A stretch of 64,000 nt of DNA, from sequence record PX104379.1; one strand, given 5' to 3'. Made by a program: the position numbers and the translations under genes. The notes beneath the pieces were generated by a model. The model had not been told where the DNA came from and ran no database searches. It saw nothing but the letters and a program-made list of their open reading frames with translations. The number at the start of each line of letters is the position of its first letter. Positions within the stretch are counted from its first letter, which is position 1. This DNA is from a phage. Below, piece after piece: positions 2,653-62,317 of the stretch.

Positions 2653-4277
<1,625 letters not shown>

Positions 4278-4278
<1 letters not shown>

Positions 4279-4517
4279 TGGAAGGTTTAATTGAAGCTAT
4301 TAAATCAAACGACCTCGTAGCCGCTCGTAAATTATTTGCTGAAGCCATGGCTGCAAGAACGACTGATTTAATTAAAGAAGAAAAAATCGCTATCGCTCGT
4401 AATTTCTTAATCGAAGGTGAAGAACCTGATGACGAGGATGATGACGAAGACGAAGATAGTGATGATAAAGACGACAAAAAAGACAAAGACTCTGACGAAG
4501 ACGAGGATGATGAATAA
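4278..4517 (+). CDS. 67: Prohead core protein gp67 with acidic D/E-rich C-terminus
   Basis: 79-aa ORF overlapping gene 20 stop; poly-acidic tail typical of T4 gp67. Confidence 0.8.
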
Positions 4518-4942
4518 TGCTTCTGATCCCTGAAACTCATGAATTAGTTCTCGAGAATGTCGAAGCACTTATTCCTGAAGCACAGGGTCGCTTTGACGAA
4601 TTGTCTTCTGCTTTAAATAAAGACGATATAAATACAATTGTCGAGAATATGCTTGATGATGAAACTGATTTAGCGGTTGCATTAGCTTCTATTAATGAAA
4701 ATATGCCGTTAAATGAATTTATCGTTAAACATGTTTCTGCCCGTGGTGAAATTACTCGCACTAAAGATCGCAAAACCCGCGAACGTAATGCATTTCAAAC
4801 TACCGGGTTGTCTAAAGCAAAACGTAGACAAATTGCTCGTAAAGCTACCAAAACGAAGATTGCCAATCCAGCAGGTCAATCTCGTGCTCAGCGTAAGCGT
4901 AAAAAAGCTCTTAAACGCCGTAAAGCATTAGGATTAAGCTAA
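4517..4942 (+). CDS. 68: Prohead core protein gp68
   Basis: 141-aa ORF between 67 and 21, basic C-terminus; positional and size match. Confidence 0.8.
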
Positions 4943-35261: not shown

Positions 35262-35593
35262 AGTACGCCATACACCCTTTGTGCTTCAACTAATCCATCA
35301 AAATCCAGTTTAAGATGCGATATTTGATCGCCATCGCCTGGATTCACAATTACTAATACTGAACGAGGAGTTTCGGTAATAACACGAACCGATGTTTCAG
35401 GAAATCGTTCAGAAACCTTATTTACCAATTCCTGAGCAAATAGTTTAACTTTTTCTTGGAATTCTTTAACAGTAATTGGTTTTTCACTTAGCAGCATTTT
35501 GTTTTCCTCATTTGTTTGGTAGAGCCATAATATCACAACTCTACCGTAAAGTAAACTATTAAATCGCTTTGAATTCCGCAGTTTGAGATTCAA
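35258..35593 (-). CDS. Hypothetical protein (cd.2 position)
   Basis: 111-aa ORF. Confidence 0.5.
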   Translation of the reverse strand: MNLKLRNSKRFNSLLYGRVVILWLYQTNEENKMLLSEKPITVKEFQEKVKLFAQELVNKVSERFPETSVRVITETPRSVLVIVNPGDGDQISHLKLDFDGLVEAQRVYGVL

Positions 35594-44532: not shown

Positions 44533-45393
44533 TTATACCGCCATCTTTCCTTTAATTGACGGATGAGATACATAGTTGTTAAGAACAAAATTATGCGGCT
44601 TTGCGAATTGACTCAACCAAAATACCTGCGATTCTGTGTCCCATTCATCAAATTCATCTGGAAATTTTAATTGTAATTCGCATAAATCCATAGGTTCACG
44701 ACGCAAAATTTCTTTACATTGTTCTACGTGATTCATATAGATATGAGTATTACCACCAGAAAATATCAAATCTCCCGGAATAAGATTACACATCTTAGCT
44801 ACAATATGAACTAACGTAGCATATGATGCAATATTAAATGGAAGACCGAGGAAAACATCTACCGAACGTTGATACCACTGCAAATCTAAATAGCCATTAC
44901 GCACATTAAACTGATAGAACATATGACAAGGCGGTAATGCCATATATTTAAGTTCAGCTGGATTCCACGCAGAAACAATTTGACGCCTATCATTTGGCAT
45001 TTTTTTAATACGATCAACAACTTCTATAATTTGGTCTACACCGCCAAAATCGCGCCACTGTTTTCCATAAATTGGACCAAGTTCACCACTATGGTATCCT
45101 AAATCTTTTGCCTGATTTTCGTAATTTTCATCCCAAACTGTTTTGCCTTGGATTAACGAATCGTGTTGAATTAATCGTAAATCATTGACATTTGTGCTTC
45201 CCGATAAAAACCATATTAGCTCAGCAATGCATGCATTCCAGGCGAGCTTCTTAGTTGTTACTGCAGGAAAACCTTTGGTTAAATCCCATCGTAATTTAGT
45301 ACCGAACAAAGCAATTGTTCCTGTGCCCGTTCGGTCATCGGTTTCATAGCCATTTTCAAAAATGTCTTTAATTAAATCTTGGTATTGTTTCAT
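44533..45393 (-). CDS. td: Thymidylate synthase, uninterrupted
   Basis: 286-aa continuous ORF MKQYQDLIKDIFENGYE; active-site region PPCH present; no intron. Confidence 0.95.
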   Translation of the reverse strand: MKQYQDLIKDIFENGYETDDRTGTGTIALFGTKLRWDLTKGFPAVTTKKLAWNACIAELIWFLSGSTNVNDLRLIQHDSLIQGKTVWDENYENQAKDLGYHSGELGPIYGKQWRDFGGVDQIIEVVDRIKKMPNDRRQIVSAWNPAELKYMALPPCHMFYQFNVRNGYLDLQWYQRSVDVFLGLPFNIASYATLVHIVAKMCNLIPGDLIFSGGNTHIYMNHVEQCKEILRREPMDLCELQLKFPDEFDEWDTESQVFWLSQFAKPHNFVLNNYVSHPSIKGKMAV

Positions 45394-45438
45394 TTAGTAC
45401 CTTATATAAATTATAATACATTTTATGAAGCTAAATAA

Positions 45439-45798
45439 TCAATACGGTTTAGCATCAAATTTTCTCTCAATTTCAGGTGTGAAATATAATTCTTTACCGC
45501 GTTTGGAAAAGCGACCAATAATATGATAATTATTCTCATCAAACGTGATATTACCAATATCCATAGCTTTCAACCAAATATCGATATTTCTATCCAGCTT
45601 TATGTCAAAATTCCAATACGGAGAACTATTACCGAAAATACTACAAGCGGATTCGGTGAAACAGCTACTATAAATCTTGTCTTTAGGAACTACTAATTGA
45701 TAGACACCTTTAATAAACTGAGGACCTTGCCATTTTGGCTGTTTCGCGTCTTTTTCTAATAGAATAGGGTAATAATTAAAATTCATATTTTCCGCCAT
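45439..45798 (-). CDS. Hypothetical protein, 119 aa, inserted between frd and td
   Basis: ORF starts 8 bp after frd stop and ends 45 bp before td start; no recognisable motif. Confidence 0.6.
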   Translation of the reverse strand: MAENMNFNYYPILLEKDAKQPKWQGPQFIKGVYQLVVPKDKIYSSCFTESACSIFGNSSPYWNFDIKLDRNIDIWLKAMDIGNITFDENNYHIIGRFSKRGKELYFTPEIERKFDAKPY

Positions 45799-45806
45799 GC
45801 GTTATT

Positions 45807-46629
<823 letters not shown>

Positions 46630-46645
<16 letters not shown>

Positions 46646-46989
46646 TGAAAGGGGCCATAAGCAAATCCGCTATCTTTAATCATTTTAACTAAAGTTACCA
46701 TTCCTCTGTTAACTGCTTGTGCGATTTCATTAAAAACTTCATCACTATCACCATAAAGATCGCTAAAAAGTTCTAACACGTTCTTCTGAACTTTTAATTT
46801 ACAACCAACAAATTCGCCTACAGTAAATTCGTTTCCGCCAACTCCAGCGTAAAACGTAATTACACCAGTTAATGGTCTTTCACTAGAACATAGGTCGTGT
46901 GATAAATTAATATAAGCCGTCCCGGGCGCAGTTTTAAGTTGGCAACGAATACTTACTCGAGCAATTCCAGCTACACGAATGTCAGACAT
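46630..46989 (-). CDS. Hypothetical protein (frd.2 position)
   Basis: 119-aa ORF. Confidence 0.5.
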
Positions 46990-46999
46990 ATTATTTTCC

Positions 47000-47242
47000 T
47001 CAAACAGACTTTTTCACAATTTTCCAATCAGCTTTAAACTGATCAACATCAGAATGATAAATCCAAAATCCTGCGCTTTCACCATCTTCATAAAGCGGAC
47101 ATCCATCGCATTCATCTTCCCATCCCATATCACGCAAAAGATGTTCAGCTTTTTCAACAAGTTCAGAATCTTTACCGATGATATTAAAATACCATTTACC
47201 TCTAACTTCCGAATCTTTGATGCTTTGACGTTGTAATCTCAT
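47000..47242 (-). CDS. Hypothetical protein (frd.3 position)
   Basis: 80-aa ORF with GAGGAG ribosome-binding site and GTTTACA promoter upstream. Confidence 0.55.
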   Translation of the reverse strand: MRLQRQSIKDSEVRGKWYFNIIGKDSELVEKAEHLLRDMGWEDECDGCPLYEDGESAGFWIYHSDVDQFKADWKIVKKSV

Positions 47243-47268
47243 TTTATTCTCCTCAAGTTGATAAGGCT

Positions 47269-47298
47269 ATAGTATCATTACCATAGCCCGTTGTAAAC
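47269..47298 (-). promoter_or_regulatory. Candidate early promoter upstream of frd.3-position gene
   Basis: Minus strand GTTTACA, 17-nt spacer, TACTAT. Confidence 0.4.
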
Positions 47299-47300
47299 AA

Positions 47301-47594
47301 TTATTTTTGAATTTTATCGAGCCACTTACCAAGCTTAATCATTTCTTTAGTAGCCTTTTCCATACTTCTGAACTTGACCAATAGAGGATAGGTATCGACA
47401 CCCATAACTAAACTGGTTACAAGACTGTGTTCACCCACAAGCCATAACGAATACGTTTGAATATCGAGCCCGTAATTTCTGTCTTTGTGGACCCGTACAC
47501 CCATCACTTCAAATTTCTCACTAGCTTTTTCTACCGCATCCAGGAAATCATCTTTAGTCATATTAGGCCTTAAAAGTTTTTCGCAAAAGTTCAA
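47301..47594 (-). CDS. Hypothetical protein, 97 aa
   Basis: ORF between frd.3-position gene and gene 32; start ambiguous. Confidence 0.45.
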   Translation of the reverse strand: MNFCEKLLRPNMTKDDFLDAVEKASEKFEVMGVRVHKDRNYGLDIQTYSLWLVGEHSLVTSLVMGVDTYPLLVKFRSMEKATKEMIKLGKWLDKIQK

Positions 47595-47928
47595 TGATTT
47601 CGTCTACATTGTTTTCATCTACAATGCAGTGAATTTTTGTTACGCCAGAAACCTTGTCTTTGACTTCATCTTCTTCAGAAGTCGGTTCTTTATACTCGCG
47701 AAAACAATGAAATTCGTCTTCACAAACGTTAAAGTAAAAATGCTTTCCATTTGCGCATTCAATGTGTTTTATTACTCTAAATCCATCAACAAAGAAAGCT
47801 TCTTTAACTTCAAACCATCCGCCGTTTTCTTGAATAATTTTAACTATTGATGAATTAGAACGTGGGCGATAATTAATAAATGTATCAATAAGTCTTGGAA
47901 CAAGCTCATACTTTTTGCCGATATACAT
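47563..47928 (-). CDS. Hypothetical protein, 121 aa
   Basis: ORF with GAGGAAA ribosome-binding site after hairpin. Confidence 0.5.
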   Translation of the reverse strand: MYIGKKYELVPRLIDTFINYRPRSNSSIVKIIQENGGWFEVKEAFFVDGFRVIKHIECANGKHFYFNVCEDEFHCFREYKEPTSEEDEVKDKVSGVTKIHCIVDENNVDEIIELLRKTFKA

Positions 47929-47972
47929 TACGGTTTCCTCATTTTGATAGGGGCTTGATAGCCCCTTGATAA

Positions 47973-48263
47973 TTATTGTTCAATCAGTCCCATGTAAAAT
48001 TCTGCGTCTTCGGCATCCATGCCATCACAATATTCATTAGCCATAAAGCGGGTGAGGTCTTCAAGAGGACCTTCAACAACAATTTGAATACTCCAAAATT
48101 TAGAATCTTGCACACTTGTGATACTAAGTTCAGGATAACGATTACGAATAATTTCTTCAATATATTCAAAATCAACAACATCAATATCAACTTTAGCCAT
48201 ATTATTTTCCTCTTTAATTATTAGCAGTATTGCCGATAGTTGTATAGTACCATGGAAGGACAA
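47973..48263 (-). CDS. Hypothetical protein, 96 aa (or 75 aa from internal Met)
   Basis: ORF directly downstream of gene 32 terminator. Confidence 0.45.
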
Positions 48264-48294
48264 GGATGTAAACCATTTTGTGAAAAAATTTTTG

Positions 48295-48322
48295 AAATAA
48301 AAAAGGGACCCTAGAGGTCCCC
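48295..48322 (-). terminator. Intrinsic terminator after gene 32
   Basis: Minus strand GGGACC-TCTAG-GGTCCC followed by TTTTTTATTTC. Confidence 0.7.
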
Positions 48323-48344
48323 AATTAATTAGTAATATAATCTA

Positions 48345-49253
48345 TTAAAGGTCATTCAAAAGGTCATCCAGGTCCGTGTCATCAGCACTAGATGAACTGC
48401 CAGAGCTTGAGCTCATAAAATCATCTTCAGTTTTTGTATTGAAGTCATCAACATTGAATGCATCCAAATCATCAGCAACTTTATCAGCTTTCTTAGCAGC
48501 AGTTGCAGCAGCACCGCCCATCACAGCAGTTCCCATAACTTGACCGAATTTAGTGCTCAGTTCTTCAAACGATTTGAATTTATCTTTAGAAGTCATTTCA
48601 GAAAGGTCAACCATTTGTTCGAACAGTTCTTTCTGGAAAGATTCATCGTCAATGTTTGGAATCGCAGATTGATTCAGGAATTTAGATTCGTCGTAGTTAC
48701 TAAAACCAGAAACTTGTTTAACTTTCAGTACAAAGTTAGCACCTTCCCACGGACAAGTTACATCAACCGGAGTTTCACCCATTTCAACATCAACTGCAAT
48801 CATTGCGTTGATTTTATCCCAGATTTTCTTACCGAAACGGTATTTAAATACTTTACCTTCATTTTCTGGAGCAGCTGGGTCTTTTACTACAAGAATGTTA
48901 GCCCAGTAAGAAGTTTTACGTTTAACAAGACCGTACTCTTTATTGTCAGTGTTGTACAAATCATTTTTACTGATGTACTGACATACTGGGCAAGAATCGT
49001 AATCACCGTGGGTAGATGAACAGTTTTCAATATACCATTTACCATTTTTCTTGAAACCGTGATTTACAAGAATTGCGAATGGTGCTTGTTCATCATTTTT
49101 AGACGGAAGAAAACGAATTACTGCTTGACCGTTACCCGCATTGTCGAGTTTCAGTTTCCACTCGCCTTTATCTTCAGAAGAAAAACCACCTTTATTTCCA
49201 GCCAGTTTAGCCATTTGTGCAGCGAGTTCAGCAGTAGATTTACGTTTAAACAT
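48345..49253 (-). CDS. 32: Single-stranded DNA-binding protein gp32
   Basis: 302 aa; [18 protein letters not shown]-terminus and acidic C-terminus as in T4 gp32; translational operator upstream. Confidence 0.95.
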
Positions 49254-49320
49254 TTTTATTTCCTTTTTAATTTAATTAACAGTTGGTGCTATGACGATGT
49301 ATGACCTCATAGCTGGTCAG
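49254..49320 (-). promoter_or_regulatory. Gene 32 translational operator (autoregulation by gp32)
   Basis: mRNA leader has hairpin GCUAUGA...UCAUAGC followed by unstructured UUAAUUAAAUUAAAAAGGAAAUAAAA before AUG, as in T4 gene 32 leader. Confidence 0.55.
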
Positions 49321-49352
49321 TGAGATAATTATAATCTATTTATAATAAGCAA

Positions 49353-50006
49353 TTAATACTTGCAAGATTTCACAGTTTCAATAAAAACTTTTTTAGCTTC
49401 CTGTGAATCAATATTTAAAATTTTTCTATAAGCCTTTAACTTTATAGAATAATTATTCCAGACTAAATTATCAGTCTGTTCATCATGTTTATCAATTATA
49501 TTTAAAAATGAATCAAGCAAGATAAACGTTTCAAACGAAATTATGTTCGACTGAAGCAGTTTAAAAATATAACTTGATTGAACTTTTGGATTATATTCAA
49601 AGATTTCTTTAAAAGCAGAAACTTCAACTTTTTTACTAAAATAATAAATGTTGCGAATATCTTCTTCAAACTTAAATTTAATTTGCTTTAAGCGTCCGAT
49701 ATATTCACGATAAAACACAAGTGCATCAGCGTCAGAGATGTCACCAATCCAAGCATCTTGGTTAGCAACAAGATTGCTTATAAAGATTAAAGCAAGTTCC
49801 TTTAATTTATATTTTTCTGATAACTTCTGGAAAAAATACTTATCCCTTCGCTTTTGATAAGCGGCATCAGACACCCGCATGCACCAATTATACTTAATTA
49901 CATCATACTTTCCATTCATATGCTGTTTTATCATTAAGTATAATTTATAAACTGATTTACCATCAATGTATCTTTCACCACCAGCAGGCATGCGGAGTTT
50001 AATCAT
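49353..50006 (-). CDS. 59: Helicase loader gp59
   Basis: 217 aa, sequence matches T4 gp59 as recalled. Confidence 0.92.
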   Translation of the reverse strand: MIKLRMPAGGERYIDGKSVYKLYLMIKQHMNGKYDVIKYNWCMRVSDAAYQKRRDKYFFQKLSEKYKLKELALIFISNLVANQDAWIGDISDADALVFYREYIGRLKQIKFKFEEDIRNIYYFSKKVEVSAFKEIFEYNPKVQSSYIFKLLQSNIISFETFILLDSFLNIIDKHDEQTDNLVWNNYSIKLKAYRKILNIDSQEAKKVFIETVKSCKY

Positions 50007-51514: not shown

Positions 51515-51576
51515 ATGAACCTCGTTCAATTAGTGAGATTTCTATTATATACCATCCAAATCTTAAAGTAAACAAG

Positions 51577-51618: not shown

Positions 51619-54600
51619 ATGGCCGAGATTAAAAGAAAGTTCAGAGCAGAAGACGGTCTGGACGCAGGTGGTGATAAAATAATCAACGTAGCTTTAGCTG
51701 ATCGTACCGTAGGAACTGACGGTGTTAACGTTGATTACTTAATTCAAGAAAACACAGTTCAACAATACGATCCAACTCGTGGATATTTAAAAGATTTTGT
51801 AATCATTTATGATAACCGCTTTTGGGCTGCTATAAATGATATTCCAAAACCGGCAGGAGCTTTTAATAGCGGACGCTGGAGAGCATTACGTACCGATGCT
51901 AACTGGATTACGGTTTCATCTGGTTCATATCAATTAAAATCTGGTGAAGCTATTTCAGTTAACACCGCAGCTGGTAATGATATTACATTTACTTTACCAT
52001 CTACCCCAATTGATGGTGATACTATCGTTCTCCAAGATATTGGAGGAAAACCTGGAGTTAACCAAGTTTTAATTGTAGCTCCGGTGCAAAGTATTGTAAA
52101 CTTCAGAGGTCAACAAGTACGTTCAGTACTAATGACTCATCCAAAGTCACAGCTAGTTTTAATTTTTAGTAATCGTCTGTGGCAAATGTATGTTGCTGAT
52201 TATAGCAGAGAAGCTGTAGTTGTAACACCAGCGAATACTTATCAAGCACAATCAAACGATTTTATCGTACGTAGATTTACTTCTGCTGCACCAATTAATG
52301 TTAAACTTCCAAGATTTGCTAATCATGGCGATATTATTAATTTCGTTGATTTAGATAAACTGAATCCACTTTATCATACAATTGTTACTACATACGATGA
52401 AACGACTTCAGTGCAAGAAGTTGGAACTCATTCCATTGAAGGCCGTACATCGATTGACGGTTTCTTGATGTTTGATGATAATGAGAAATTGTGGAGATTG
52501 TTTGACGGGGATAGTAAAGCACGTTTACGCATTATAACGACTAATTCTAATATTCGTCCAAACGAAGAAGTTATGGTATTTGGTGCGAATAACGGAACAA
52601 CCCAAACAATTGAGCTTCAGCTTCCTACTAATATCTCCGTTGGTGATACTGTTAAAATTTCCATGAATTACATGAGAAAAGGACAAACAGTTAAAATCAA
52701 AGCTGCCGGTGAAGATAAAATTGCTTCTTCAGTTCAATTGCTGCAATTCCCAAAACGTTCAGAATATCCACCTGAAACTAAATGGGTAACTGTTCAAGAA
52801 TTAGTTTTTAACGGTGAAACTAATTATGTTCCAGTTTTACAGCTTGCTTATATAGAAGATTCTGATGGAAAATACTGGGTTGTACAGCAAAACGTTCCAA
52901 CTGTAGAAAGAGTAGATTCTTTAAATGATTCTACTAGAGCAAGATTAGGCGTAATTGCTTTAGCTACACAGGCTCAAGCTAACGTCGATTTAGAAAATTC
53001 TCCACAAAAAGAATTAGCAATTACTCCAGAAACATTAGCTAACCGTACTGCTACTGAAACTCGCAGAGGTATTGCAAGAATAGCAACTACTGCTCAAGTG
53101 AATCAGAACACTACATTCTCTTTTGCTGATGATATTATCATCACTCCTAAAAAGCTGAATGAAAGAACTGCTACAGAAACTCGCAGAGGTGTTGCTGAAA
53201 TTGCTACGCAGCAAGAAACTAATGCAGGAACCGATGATACTACAATCATTACTCCTAAAAAGCTTCAAGCTCGTCAAGGTTCTGAATCATTATCTGGTAT
53301 TGTAACTTTTGTATCTACTGCAGGTGCTACTCCAGCTTCTAGCCGTGAATTAAATGGTACGAATGTTTATAATAAAAACACTAATAACTTAGTTGTTTCA
53401 CCCAAAGCTTTGGATCAGTATAAAGCTACTCCAACGCAACAAGGTGCAGTAATTTTAGCAGTTGAAAGTGAAGTAATTGCTGGACAGAGTCAAGAAGGAT
53501 GGGCAAATGCTGTTGTAACGCCAGAAACGTTACACAAAAAGACATCAACTGATGGAAGAATTGGTTTAATTGAAATTGCTACGCAAAGTGAAGTTAATAC
53601 AGGAACTGATTATACTCGTGCAGTCACTCCTAAAACTTTAAATGACCGTAGAGCAACTGAAAGTTTAAGTGGTATAGCTGAAATTGCTACGCAAGTTGAA
53701 TTCGACGCAGGCGTCGACGATACTCGTATCTCTACACCATTAAAAATTAAAACCAGATTTAATAGTACTGATCGTACTTCTGTTGTTGCTCTATCTGGAT
53801 TAGTTGAATCAGGAACTCTCTGGGACCATTATACCCTTAATATTCTTGAAGCAAATGAGACACAACGTGGTACACTTCGTGTAGCTACACAAGTTGAAGC
53901 TGCTGCAGGAACATTAGATAATGTTTTAATAACTCCTAAAAAGCTTTTAGGTACTAAATCTACCGAAGCACAAGAAGGTGTTATTAAAGTTGCAACTCAG
54001 TCTGAAACTGTGGCTGGAACGTCAGCGAACACCGCTGTATCTCCAAAAAATTTAAAATGGATTGTGCAGAGTGAACCTACCTGGGCAGCTACTACTGCGA
54101 TAAGAGGTTTTGTTAAAACTTCATCCGGTTCAATTACATTCGTTGGTAATGATACAGTCGGTTCTACCCAAGATTTAGAACTGTATGAGAAAAATAGCTA
54201 TGCAGTATCACCATATGAATTAAACCGTGTATTAGCAAATTATTTACCGTTAAAAGCAAAAGCTGCTGATACAAATTTATTGGATGGTCTAGATTCATCT
54301 CAGTTCATTCGTAGGGATATTGCACAGACGGTTAATGGTTCACTAACCTTAACCCAACAAACGAATCTGAGTGCCCCTCTTGTATCATCTAGTACTGCTA
54401 CGTTTGGTGGATCAGTTTCGGCAAATAGTACATTAACTATTTCTAATACTGGAACGGCAACTCGTCTGATTTTTGAGAAAGGACCTCAAACTGGAACTAA
54501 CCCAGCACAGACGATGACTATCAGAGTTTGGGGAAATCAGTTTAGTGGCGGATCAGATACAACGCGTTCTACTGTATTTGAAGTTGGTGATGAAACATCT

Positions 54601-62164: not shown

Positions 62165-62317
62165 TCAATTAGTTGACTTTGTTATAATATCATCAGACGC
62201 TTGATTTGTAAACTGGTCTGTGTTATTTTCTTCAAAAATTTTTTCTACGAATTCCTTGAACGACTTACGTTCCTGAGCTACATTATGCTCGATTACTTTT
62301 TCAAGATTATGACTCAT
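62165..62317 (-). CDS. Small ORF, 50 aa
   Basis: Hand translation MSHNLEKVIEHNVAQERKSFKEFVEKIFEENNTDQFTNQASDDIITKSTN; fills gap between asiA and arn. Confidence 0.35.
   Translation of the reverse strand: MSHNLEKVIEHNVAQERKSFKEFVEKIFEENNTDQFTNQASDDIITKSTN

Follow-up and report, generated by a model that had tools for sequence, protein, structure and literature searches.

According to its annotation, phage T4 carries the genes 32, frd.3, frd.2, frd.1, frd and td in this order, with SegG encoded upstream of gene 32. The product of the first gene after 32, T4 Frd.3 (NP_049853), is kept in the databases under the title 'uncharacterized 8.8 kDa protein in frd-Gp32 intergenic region', and among the T4 RNAs with an NAD cap, those from frd.3 have been reported to rank with the most abundant (bioRxiv 10.1101/2024.04.04.588121). 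For T4 Frd.2 (NP_049852), one of the early proteins, an LSm-like fold was predicted in the N-terminal domain, and the protein was placed in the GoF/MotB.1/Frd.2 family, which is characterised by an LSm/SH3-like, bent beta-sheet of five strands at the N-terminus (PMC12152347). The published results on the dispensability of frd.2 conflict: in the CRISPRi-ART screen, a knock-down approach, it emerged as the sole 'Fit' T4 gene of unknown function (PMC11879866), whereas a frd.2 amber mutant of T4 plated with normal efficiency (PMC12152347). For T4-like phages a promoter-early stem-loop (PeSL) shuffling model has been put forward (Arbiol et al. 2010, PMC2839356; Comeau et al. 2014, PMC4122927), and the PST/T4 early-promoter consensus was given as TTTACW-N17-TAYWAT (PMC4122927).

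Gene order between gene 32 and frd.1

The window, i.e., the whole stretch of 64,000 nucleotides that was analysed (PX104379.1), is a Tequatrovirus (T4-like) genome. On its minus strand the order is 59, 32, terminator, early promoter, frd.3, frd.2, a gene of 86 codons (the 86-aa gene), early promoter/stem-loop and frd.1, followed by frd and td. In the original prediction this interval was described as a variable accessory locus with three small minus-strand ORFs of 96, 121 and 97 aa, and these are found exactly so if they are drawn as maximal ORFs: 47973-48263 (96 aa, TTG start), 47563-47928 (121 aa, ATG start) and 47301-47594 (97 aa, TTG start), flanked by the gene 32 terminator and an 80-aa gene. 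Both TTG starts are likely over-extended, and the versions of 75 and 86 aa are the likely genes. The TTG at 48263 falls within the early promoter at 48244-48273, and the ATG of frd.3 at 48200 is preceded by AAAGAGGAAA and yields 75 aa, the length of T4 Frd.3. The TTG of the 97-aa ORF sits 32 nt inside frd.2, and the ATG at 47561, preceded by UAAGG, yields 86 aa in agreement with the annotation of other phages and with the start of the PHROG profile. The flanking 80-aa gene (47000-47242, minus strand), which had been taken for the gene in the frd.3 position, is really frd.1, with a match to Pfam PF17438 (DUF5417, 2.5e-33) and 99% identity to T4 Frd.1.

The interval very probably represents the standard T-even early pair frd.3-frd.2 together with one optional small gene of the RB68_237 family (PHROG 4423). 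The locus is an ordinary piece of a T-even genome, already known and catalogued, and the public databases contain exact copies of all three proteins. Synteny with T4 holds for two of the three genes, frd.3 and frd.2, which occupy the same position there, and the 86-aa gene is absent. As regards the proposed variability, the presence or absence of the 86-aa gene, the swaps in the N-terminal part of frd.2 and the gene order in other genera bear it out, but frd.3 and frd.2 are T4 genes and not accessory ones.

It is very improbable that the three are novel accessory ORFs absent from T4, forming a variable island in place of segG. True, all three proteins are without known function, the 86-aa gene is indeed missing from T4, and no GIY-YIG ORF is present, as had been stated, the ORFs giving no match to a GIY-YIG Pfam family. 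Two of the ORFs, however, are T4 frd.3 and frd.2 in their T4 position, and segG lies on the other side of gene 32, so that this reading is already refuted by the annotation of T4 and by the alignments. The T4 annotation puts SegG (gene 32.1), a GIY-YIG homing endonuclease, not between 32 and frd but between 59 and 32, and the equivalent gap in the window measures only 99 bp (49254-49352) and harbours no segG homologue. SegG shares with the present locus only the neighbourhood of gene 32; since in T4 it is encoded upstream of this gene, nothing here replaces it. An Rfam scan of 46300-49400 for non-coding RNA returned no family at E ≤ 1.

Frd.3 and the alleles of Frd.2

The gene frd.3 (47973-48200, minus strand) encodes an acidic protein of 75 aa (pI 4.05), which matches Pfam PF05798 (Phage_FRD3) with 134.9 bits (cut-off 28.1; 1.4e-39) over profile positions 1-75 of 75. 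It is identical to T4 Frd.3 (NP_049853) in 72 of 75 residues (96%), thus differing by three amino-acid substitutions only, and the T4 gene has the same length (75 aa) and the same place, directly after the gene 32 terminator and an early promoter. By tblastn, frd.3 was found in 734 phage records; in JS98 and VR20 the orthologue is placed after a copy of frd.2, not before it. The AF2 model of Frd.3, a very confident one (pLDDT 94), shows the order beta-alpha-beta-beta-alpha-alpha, for which a comparison with the PDB gave no fold match at E ≤ 0.001. The best PDB matches were the BMC shell proteins PduA and CcmK (TM 0.45-0.56, 4-14% identity), which at E of at least 0.029 are not significant; an ACT domain was also listed, and no membership in the BMC-H shell-protein fold is claimed.

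The second gene, frd.2 (47563-47928, minus strand), codes for 121 aa and represents a T2-type allele. Its product matches Pfam PF03197 (FRD2) with 109.8 bits (cut-off 29; 1.2e-31) over profile positions 2-95 of 96, and its identity amounts to 94% with T2 Frd.2 and, over the full length, to 68% with T4 Frd.2 (NP_049852), the latter being longer by 7 residues. The earlier view that none of the three ORFs has a recognisable motif is therefore untenable for frd.3 and frd.2, both far above the Pfam cut-offs, and holds for the 86-aa gene, which is without a Pfam match. Frd.2 consists of a variable N-terminal domain and a conserved C-terminal block of 28 aa, SGVTKIHCIVDENNVDEIIELLRKTFK. In T4 Frd.2, encoded at the same position, the 28 C-terminal residues are 96% identical to those of the window allele, whereas the N-terminal domain plus linker reaches only 65%, and in the alleles of phiD1 and Ac3, which belong to the same genus, the N-terminal part drops to 27-28%. 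Comparison of the alleles indicates that the N-terminal domain of frd.2 is hypervariable and swapped between alleles within one genus, with the 28 C-terminal residues fixed. The LSm-like fold has been published for T4 Frd.2 only, to which the N-terminal part of the window allele is 65% identical. At its other end the window protein terminates in ...FKA because the ribosome-binding site of the next gene is embedded there.

The 86-aa gene and the edges of its indel

The third gene (47301-47561, minus strand) matches PHROG 4423 with an E-value of 1e-49 over profile positions 1-86 of 86, and its product shows 100% identity with RB68_237 as well as with the Sf22, Ac3 and Maryam proteins. RB68_237, JS98 orf232 and Sf22 gp169 (PHROG 4423, hypothetical protein) are the same gene, with the same frd.2 junction and the same downstream promoter. 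The exact protein is present on 231 contigs, and a tblastn search matched the gene in 352 phage records, of which about 200 reach an identity of at least 80%. BASEL phage AndreasVesalius (Bas42) is one of its carriers, and frd.2 itself is borne by roughly 770 records. A probe of the frd.2 3' end matched 628 records, at least 170 of which run on into the 86-aa gene; about a quarter of the T4-like phages carry it at the frd.2 junction. T4 and T2 are without the gene by sequence comparison, and it is the only one of the three ORFs that is accessory relative to T4.

Alignments with T2, T4 and JS98 define the 86-aa gene as a precise, gene-sized indel with respect to T2 and T4, and in a blastn comparison of the collinear window and T4 genomes the sole break within the interval lies at 47254-47569. 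The indel has its left edge in the last codons of frd.2, which read ...KTFKA-TAA-t-ATG here; in T2 and T4 the corresponding ...KTFKK-TAG stands directly against the promoter. Among the matches to the junction probe listed without the 86-aa gene, the match stops at query position 41, corresponding to 47570 in the window. On the right the indel is bounded by the -35 element belonging to the promoter of frd.1, GTTTACA-N17-TACTAT (47269-47298, minus strand), identified upstream of frd.1 by its match to the consensus. It is overlapped by an 11-bp stem-loop (47264-47289, minus strand; -14.7 kcal/mol, z -3.3, none of 200 shuffled sequences being as stable), the whole PeSL-like cassette spanning 47264-47298. 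Termination at this stem-loop is doubtful, because it covers the spacer and the -10 element of the promoter and is not followed by a T run. In all T-even loci inspected, the 86-aa gene ends just before the early promoter/stem-loop of frd.1.

PeSL cassettes likewise combine an early-promoter consensus with a stem-loop at the border of gene-sized indels that distinguish close relatives. Such cassettes are characterised by PeSLs on both sides and by mini-circle formation, whereas here one side is PeSL-like and the other is the conserved frd.2 3' end; since this left edge is coding sequence, the 86-aa gene does not constitute a textbook PeSL-PeSL cassette. The gene may have been gained or lost by homologous recombination, as in the shuffling model for T4-like phages, with the near-invariant 3' end of frd.2 on one side and the promoter/stem-loop plus the 5' end of frd.1 on the other serving as putative recombination arms.

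Given their shortness and the lack of an assigned function, the ORFs, or at least the one of 86 aa, might be regarded as non-coding, having arisen by chance in AT-rich intergenic DNA, a reading which is barely conceivable and was rejected on the basis of dN/dS and the pattern of conservation. The 86-aa gene is under strong purifying selection, with dN/dS values of 0.03-0.06 against JS98 and VR20 at dS 0.7-1.1, and homologues that cover its full length occur in five lineages of phages. In addition, the genes of the locus have Shine-Dalgarno sites, tight spacing and full-length profile matches. Judged by these sequence features, and by the exact copies of all three proteins in public databases, the locus comprises real genes, not chance ORFs. 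Between JS98 and the window the 86-aa protein retains 97% amino-acid identity, compared with 63% for gp32.

Searches of Pfam, NCBIfam, PADLOC and PDB sequences with the 86-aa protein gave nothing usable. A profile search of 1.84 billion representative proteins returned only 12 clusters and, therefore, no distant annotated relative. The literature search brought up no paper under the accession numbers or the PHROG/VOG identifiers of the protein, and for the family (RB68_237/PHROG 4423) no name, Pfam entry or structure was found. Within the family only 5 residues are invariant, and none of its motifs looks catalytic.

The AF2 model of the 86-aa protein (pLDDT 76) is composed of H3-16, E19-26, E37-43, E57-64 and H67-85, and when it was compared by Foldseek with the PDB and BFVD, no counterpart at E ≤ 0.001 emerged; neither for this protein nor for Frd.3 do the models and fold searches point to a function. 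The element order alpha-beta-beta-beta-alpha is that of a double-stranded RNA-binding domain (dsRBD), RNase III and a DCL4-hairpin RNA complex are among the weak rows of the Foldseek output, and a conserved S-x-E-K/R-A-x-K motif is located where the last helix begins; along these lines the protein might be dsRBD-like and bind structured RNA early in infection. The proposal appears improbable, considering that the RNase III and DCL4 rows have a Foldseek probability of 0.08-0.47 and TM values of 0.26-0.38 (E of at least 0.4 for RNase III) and that the confidence of the model is only moderate. Alignment by hhalign of the family profile with the dsRBD of E. coli RNase III (an approximate sequence) yielded a probability of 0.3%, and a scan of 18 members with Pfam dsrm gave no match even at E ≤ 10; on these two counts the identification as a dsRBD is unsupported.

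Predicted early expression and possible functions

Upstream of frd.3, the intrinsic terminator of gene 32 was located by a terminator scan at 48304-48322 (minus strand) as the hairpin GGGGACCTCTAGGGTCCCT, followed by TTTTTT, with a folding energy of -12.8 kcal/mol; the annotation of phage G4507 has a terminator at the equivalent position. This hairpin precedes a T4-type early promoter recognised by its consensus match, GTTTACA-N17-TACTAT with TG before the -10 element (48244-48273, minus strand). Both this promoter and that at 47269-47298 fit the consensus TTTACW-N17-TAYWAT; for the pattern GTTTAC-N18-TAYWAT, chance would give 0.05 copies in the window, which contains 6. The promoter at 48244-48273 putatively drives all three genes of the locus, which would be co-transcribed from it, downstream of the gene 32 terminator, immediately after infection, as its consensus suggests. 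The spacer between frd.3 and frd.2 contains a small GC hairpin, GGGGCTATCAAGCCCC (47949-47966, minus strand; -12.9 kcal/mol), without a T run. As it is not significantly more stable than shuffled sequence (z -1.75), no role is claimed for it.

The ATG of the 86-aa gene lies 1 nt past the frd.2 stop codon (TAAtATG), with a UAAGG Shine-Dalgarno site within the last codons of frd.2, and its translation could proceed from this site of its own, be coupled to that of frd.2, or both. The same distance of 1 nt to the stop codon of a frd.2 paralogue is found in every T-even phage inspected, namely six from three genera: G4507, Maryam, Sf22, Ac3, JS98 and VR20. Conceivably, the 86-aa protein serves Frd.2 as a dedicated partner, the two genes forming a module with coupled translation whose products act as a complex or a regulator pair, and is not an independent passenger. 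The exact spacing in the six phages, its maintenance whichever frd.2 allele is present (N-terminal identity 28% to 100%), the intact junction in at least 170 records and the position of the Shine-Dalgarno site inside frd.2 all speak for such a partnership. We nevertheless consider it unlikely. The weaker homologues in Phapecoctavirus, Drexlerviridae and one Vequintavirinae phage stand alone; among Phapecoctavirus, Webervirus, Guelphvirus, another Drexlerviridae phage and a Vequintavirinae phage, the homologues have no conserved neighbour in common and none that is Frd.2-like, those of Phapecoctavirus, Webervirus, Guelphvirus and the Vequintavirinae phage being surrounded by unrelated genes. 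Conversely, T4, T2, phiD1, S16 and WFbE185 possess Frd.2 without the 86-aa gene, and a single ancestral insertion site could by itself account for the constant adjacency.

In view of their small size, their early position and the absence of catalytic signatures, all three products might, at low certainty and by default, be small, soluble, non-enzymatic early proteins that bind host or phage macromolecules. Frd.3 would then act as an acidic alpha/beta binder. Frd.2 may act on RNA or protein through its N-terminal domain, an LSm/SH3-like beta-barrel according to the published prediction, and its hypervariability suggests a diversifying target. The 86-aa protein, itself highly constrained, would bind a conserved target of either enterobacterial or phage origin. 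A more specific proposal, tentative and with the odds against it, is that this protein could serve in host takeover or counter-defence, aim at a very conserved target and perhaps work with Frd.2. It was prompted by the 97% identity between genera in which the essential gp32 retains only 63%, by the way in which this gene alone has spread to virulent enterobacterial phages of at least five lineages, and by the location of the inspected T-even copies one base behind the hypervariable frd.2, which was fitness-relevant in one screen.

The main value of the analysis lies in a correction: the interval is neither a new accessory island nor a replacement of segG, but the conserved frd.3-frd.2 pair plus a catalogued optional gene. 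The precise edges of the indel show how T-even phages gain or lose a single gene without disturbing the regulation of its neighbours. Furthermore, frd.2 offers a lead, being the sole fitness-scored T4 gene of unknown function in a genome-wide knock-down and having an N-terminal domain that is swapped between alleles. The 86-aa gene, in turn, is unusually constrained and horizontally shared among unrelated enterobacterial phages, and is therefore a cheap candidate for host-range and anti-defence testing.

Gene identities and translation starts

Three minus-strand ORFs, 47973-48263 (96 aa, TTG start), 47563-47928 (121 aa, ATG start) and 47301-47594 (97 aa, TTG start), follow gene 59 (49353-50006), gene 32 (48345-49253) and its intrinsic terminator (48304-48322 plus a T run), and precede an 80-aa gene at 47000-47242. 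The ORFs of the original prediction are real and lie where it placed them, but two of the three are over-extended at their TTG starts. The TTG at 48263 falls within a promoter-like site (48244-48273), and the ATG at 48200, preceded by AAAGAGGAAA, yields 75 aa, the length of T4 Frd.3. The TTG at 47594 falls 32 nt within the preceding gene; the ATG at 47561, preceded by UAAGG, yields 86 aa, in agreement with the length annotated in related phages and with the start of the PHROG profile match.

The original prediction saw no recognizable motif in any of the three; two have clear family matches. The 75-aa protein matches Pfam Phage_FRD3 (PF05798; 134.9 bits, cut-off 28.1), the 121-aa protein FRD2 (PF03197; 109.8 bits, cut-off 29), and the downstream 80-aa protein DUF5417. 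In the RefSeq annotation of T4 (NC_000866) the order is SegG, 32, frd.3, frd.2, frd.1 (DUF5417), frd, td, and pairwise identities to the T4 proteins amount to 96% (Frd.3), 68% (Frd.2) and 99% (Frd.1). Taken together, family, gene order and identity establish, by homology, two of the "unknown" ORFs as frd.3 and frd.2 at their T4 position, and the 80-aa gene, formerly labelled the frd.3-position gene, as frd.1. The interval is variable, as had been proposed, but two of its three genes are conserved in T4 at the same site, the 86-aa gene (47301-47561) being the exception. The homing endonuclease gene segG had been placed near the 32-frd interval; in T4 it lies upstream of gene 32. It occupies the gap between genes 59 and 32 in T4 and phage Maryam and is absent from T2 and from the window, where this gap measures 99 bp (49254-49352).

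Boundaries of the 86-aa gene and flanking promoters

By blastn the window is collinear with T4 apart from four differences: the absent td intron with I-TevI, an extra 45397-45801 carrying a 119-aa ORF between frd and td, an extra 46405-46931 between frd.1 and frd (a DUF7247 gene and most of a PHROG 3183 gene), and 47254-47569 in place of 134 bp of T4, the sole one within the interval of the three ORFs.

As to the first three, td (44533-45393, 286 aa) is intronless, as in T2 and Sf22, with the T4 group I intron corresponding to 44844/44845; G4507 and Maryam carry the intron endonuclease. The 119-aa ORF (45439-45798; PHROG 1928, no Pfam match), where T4 frd and td overlap, recurs at 98-99% identity in T2, G4507, Sf22, phiD1 and Ac3. 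The two genes that T4 is without (46388-46989) are the DUF7247 gene (46630-46989, 119 aa), whose protein varies (63-94% among Tequatroviruses, flanking genes 94-99%), and the acidic 81-aa PHROG 3183 gene (46388-46633), the only one of the pair in T2. For dihydrofolate reductase the mechanical ORF (45807-46415; 202 aa from ATG 46415) runs into the gene before it; the start that resembles T4's is ATG 46388 (MIKLVFAY..., 193 aa), which shares bases with the upstream stop codon (TAATG).

The indel edges were set to the base by aligning the window with T2, T4 and JS98. In T2 and T4 the frd.2 end ...AAAAAG-TAG leads directly into GTTTACA-N17-GATACTAT; in the window ...AAGGCC-TAA-t-ATG opens the 86-aa gene, whose TAA is followed after 2 nt by a promoter of the same kind (GTTTACAACGGGCTATGGTAATGATACTAT), then TATCAAC, a Shine-Dalgarno site and the frd.1 ATG. 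In 628 phage records a junction probe matched the 3' end of frd.2, and in 170 of these the match ran on across the junction; among the listed records matching the 3' end alone, it ends at query position 41, i.e. window 47570, the breakpoint seen against T4. In T4 itself the frd.2-frd.1 stretch (about 4517-4650) holds an early promoter and then a 22-codon ORF, missing from the annotation, that has a GGAG Shine-Dalgarno site and encodes the hydrophobic peptide MFAPYIMAAVMLVCLYLLIKAC; 197 phage records cover 80% or more of the 151-bp segment, which is absent from the window and T2.

The 64-kb window contains six copies of the early-promoter pattern GTTTAC-N18-TAYWAT, where 0.05 would be expected; the pattern agrees with the PST/T4 consensus given by Comeau et al. 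(PMC4122927). Two exact minus-strand matches flank the three genes: 48244-48273, after the gene 32 terminator hairpin, and 47269-47298, overlapping an 11-bp stem-loop (-14.7 kcal/mol, z -3.3). Four more lie on the minus strand at 35527-35556, 51544-51573, 52072-52101 and 62184-62213. An Rfam scan of 46300-49400 gave no RNA family. A proposal backed by mini-circle evidence has promoter/stem-loop cassettes (PeSLs) mediating single-ORF gain and loss in T4-like phages (PMC2839356). Here, however, only the right indel edge is such an element, the left being the near-invariant frd.2 3' end; the simplest inference from these edges is that the 86-aa gene would be gained or lost by homologous recombination between two conserved arms.

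Distribution and selection

The 86-aa protein, without match in Pfam, NCBIfam or PADLOC, matches PHROG 4423 along its full length (1e-49); its sequence, found on 231 contigs, is exactly that of "hypothetical protein RB68_237". In phage records tblastn finds Frd.2 in 767, Frd.3 in 734 and the 86-aa protein in 352 (199 at at least 80% identity). According to annotated loci and a local tblastn matrix, its gene is present in Tequatrovirus G4507, Maryam, Sf22 and Ac3, Dhakavirus JS98 and Gaprivervirus VR20, and was not found in T4, T2, phiD1, S16 or WFbE185. In all six carriers it starts 1 nt past the stop codon of a frd.2 paralogue, an adjacency that holds across frd.2 alleles and despite displaced frd.3 (JS98, VR20). 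JS98 and S16 have two intact frd.2 paralogues, VR20 one intact and a second truncated or frameshifted. Since Sf22 shares an identical ten-gene order with the window, databases already contain the complete arrangement, and the three-gene locus is known, being present and annotated in public phage genomes.

Weaker homologues occur in Phapecoctavirus (about 60% identity), Guelphvirus (55%), Webervirus and another Drexlerviridae phage (42-47%), a Pectobacterium phage (35%) and a Vequintavirinae Serratia phage (28%); they are surrounded by unrelated hypothetical genes of small size, none encoding a Frd.2-like protein. It is improbable that the 86-aa protein is a dedicated Frd.2 partner, for this stand-alone occurrence in other phage families weakens the idea. 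When 1.84 billion representatives were searched exhaustively with the profile, only 12 clusters came back; the family is therefore small, and the members found were all in phage records or in contigs of phage size.

Against JS98 the 86-aa gene gives dS 0.67 and dN 0.02 (dN/dS 0.03), against VR20 dN/dS 0.06, and the protein is 97% identical to that of JS98, compared with only 63-79% for gp32, Frd.1 and Frd. Judged by these substitutions the gene is clearly coding and unusually constrained, under strong purifying selection. The opposite pattern is seen in Frd.2, where alignments show domain-level allelic replacement within one genus: within Tequatrovirus, identity to the window's protein is 92% (T2), 81% (Sf22), 65% (T4) and 27-28% (phiD1/Ac3) over the N-terminal domain and linker, but 96-100% over the C-terminal 28 residues, and gp32 is 98-100% identical.

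In Ac3 (OK040907.1) the product of gene 32 (1163-2071) shows 100% identity to its counterpart in the window, from DNA only 79.5% identical, with almost all synonymous sites altered towards GC-rich codons. Its frd.3 and frd.1 (2218-2448, 3202-3441) are equally saturated, and the 86-aa gene and frd are normal (pS 0.06-0.14); the record gives the impression of sequence that was recoded or synthesised, or of an assembly artefact.

Protein models and proposed roles

Frd.3 is acidic (pI 4.05), with a very confident AF2 model (pLDDT 94; beta-alpha-beta-beta-alpha-alpha) whose nearest solved folds, BMC-H shell proteins, are not significant (TM about 0.5, E >=0.03, 4-14% identity). The gene is among those giving the most abundant NAD-capped T4 phage RNAs (preprint, bioRxiv 10.1101/2024.04.04.588121). 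Kim et al. 2025 (PMC12152347) group T4 Frd.2 with GoF and MotB.1 as early proteins whose N-terminal part is predicted to form an LSm/SH3-like beta-barrel, and report normal plating of a frd.2 amber mutant; in contrast, among T4 genes of unknown function CRISPRi-ART scored frd.2 alone as 'Fit' (PMC11879866).

The 86-aa protein is close to neutral (pI 7.95). The alpha-beta-beta-beta-alpha order of its AF2 model (pLDDT 76) recalls a dsRBD, a resemblance echoed by a few weak RNase III rows in the Foldseek lists; yet nothing matched in PDB or BFVD at E<=0.001, and this domain was found neither when the family profile was compared with the dsRBD of E. coli RNase III (sequence entered by hand) nor when 18 family members were scanned against Pfam at permissive settings. 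Only M1, R23, G43, D56 and A70 are invariant across the family, which argues against an enzyme and for a probable binding or structural protein.

The promoter arrangement suggests that frd.3, frd.2 and the 86-aa gene would be co-transcribed as immediate-early genes, the last being translated from the UAAGG within the final frd.2 codons, possibly coupled to frd.2. All three may be small proteins that bind host or phage macromolecules and have no enzymatic activity.
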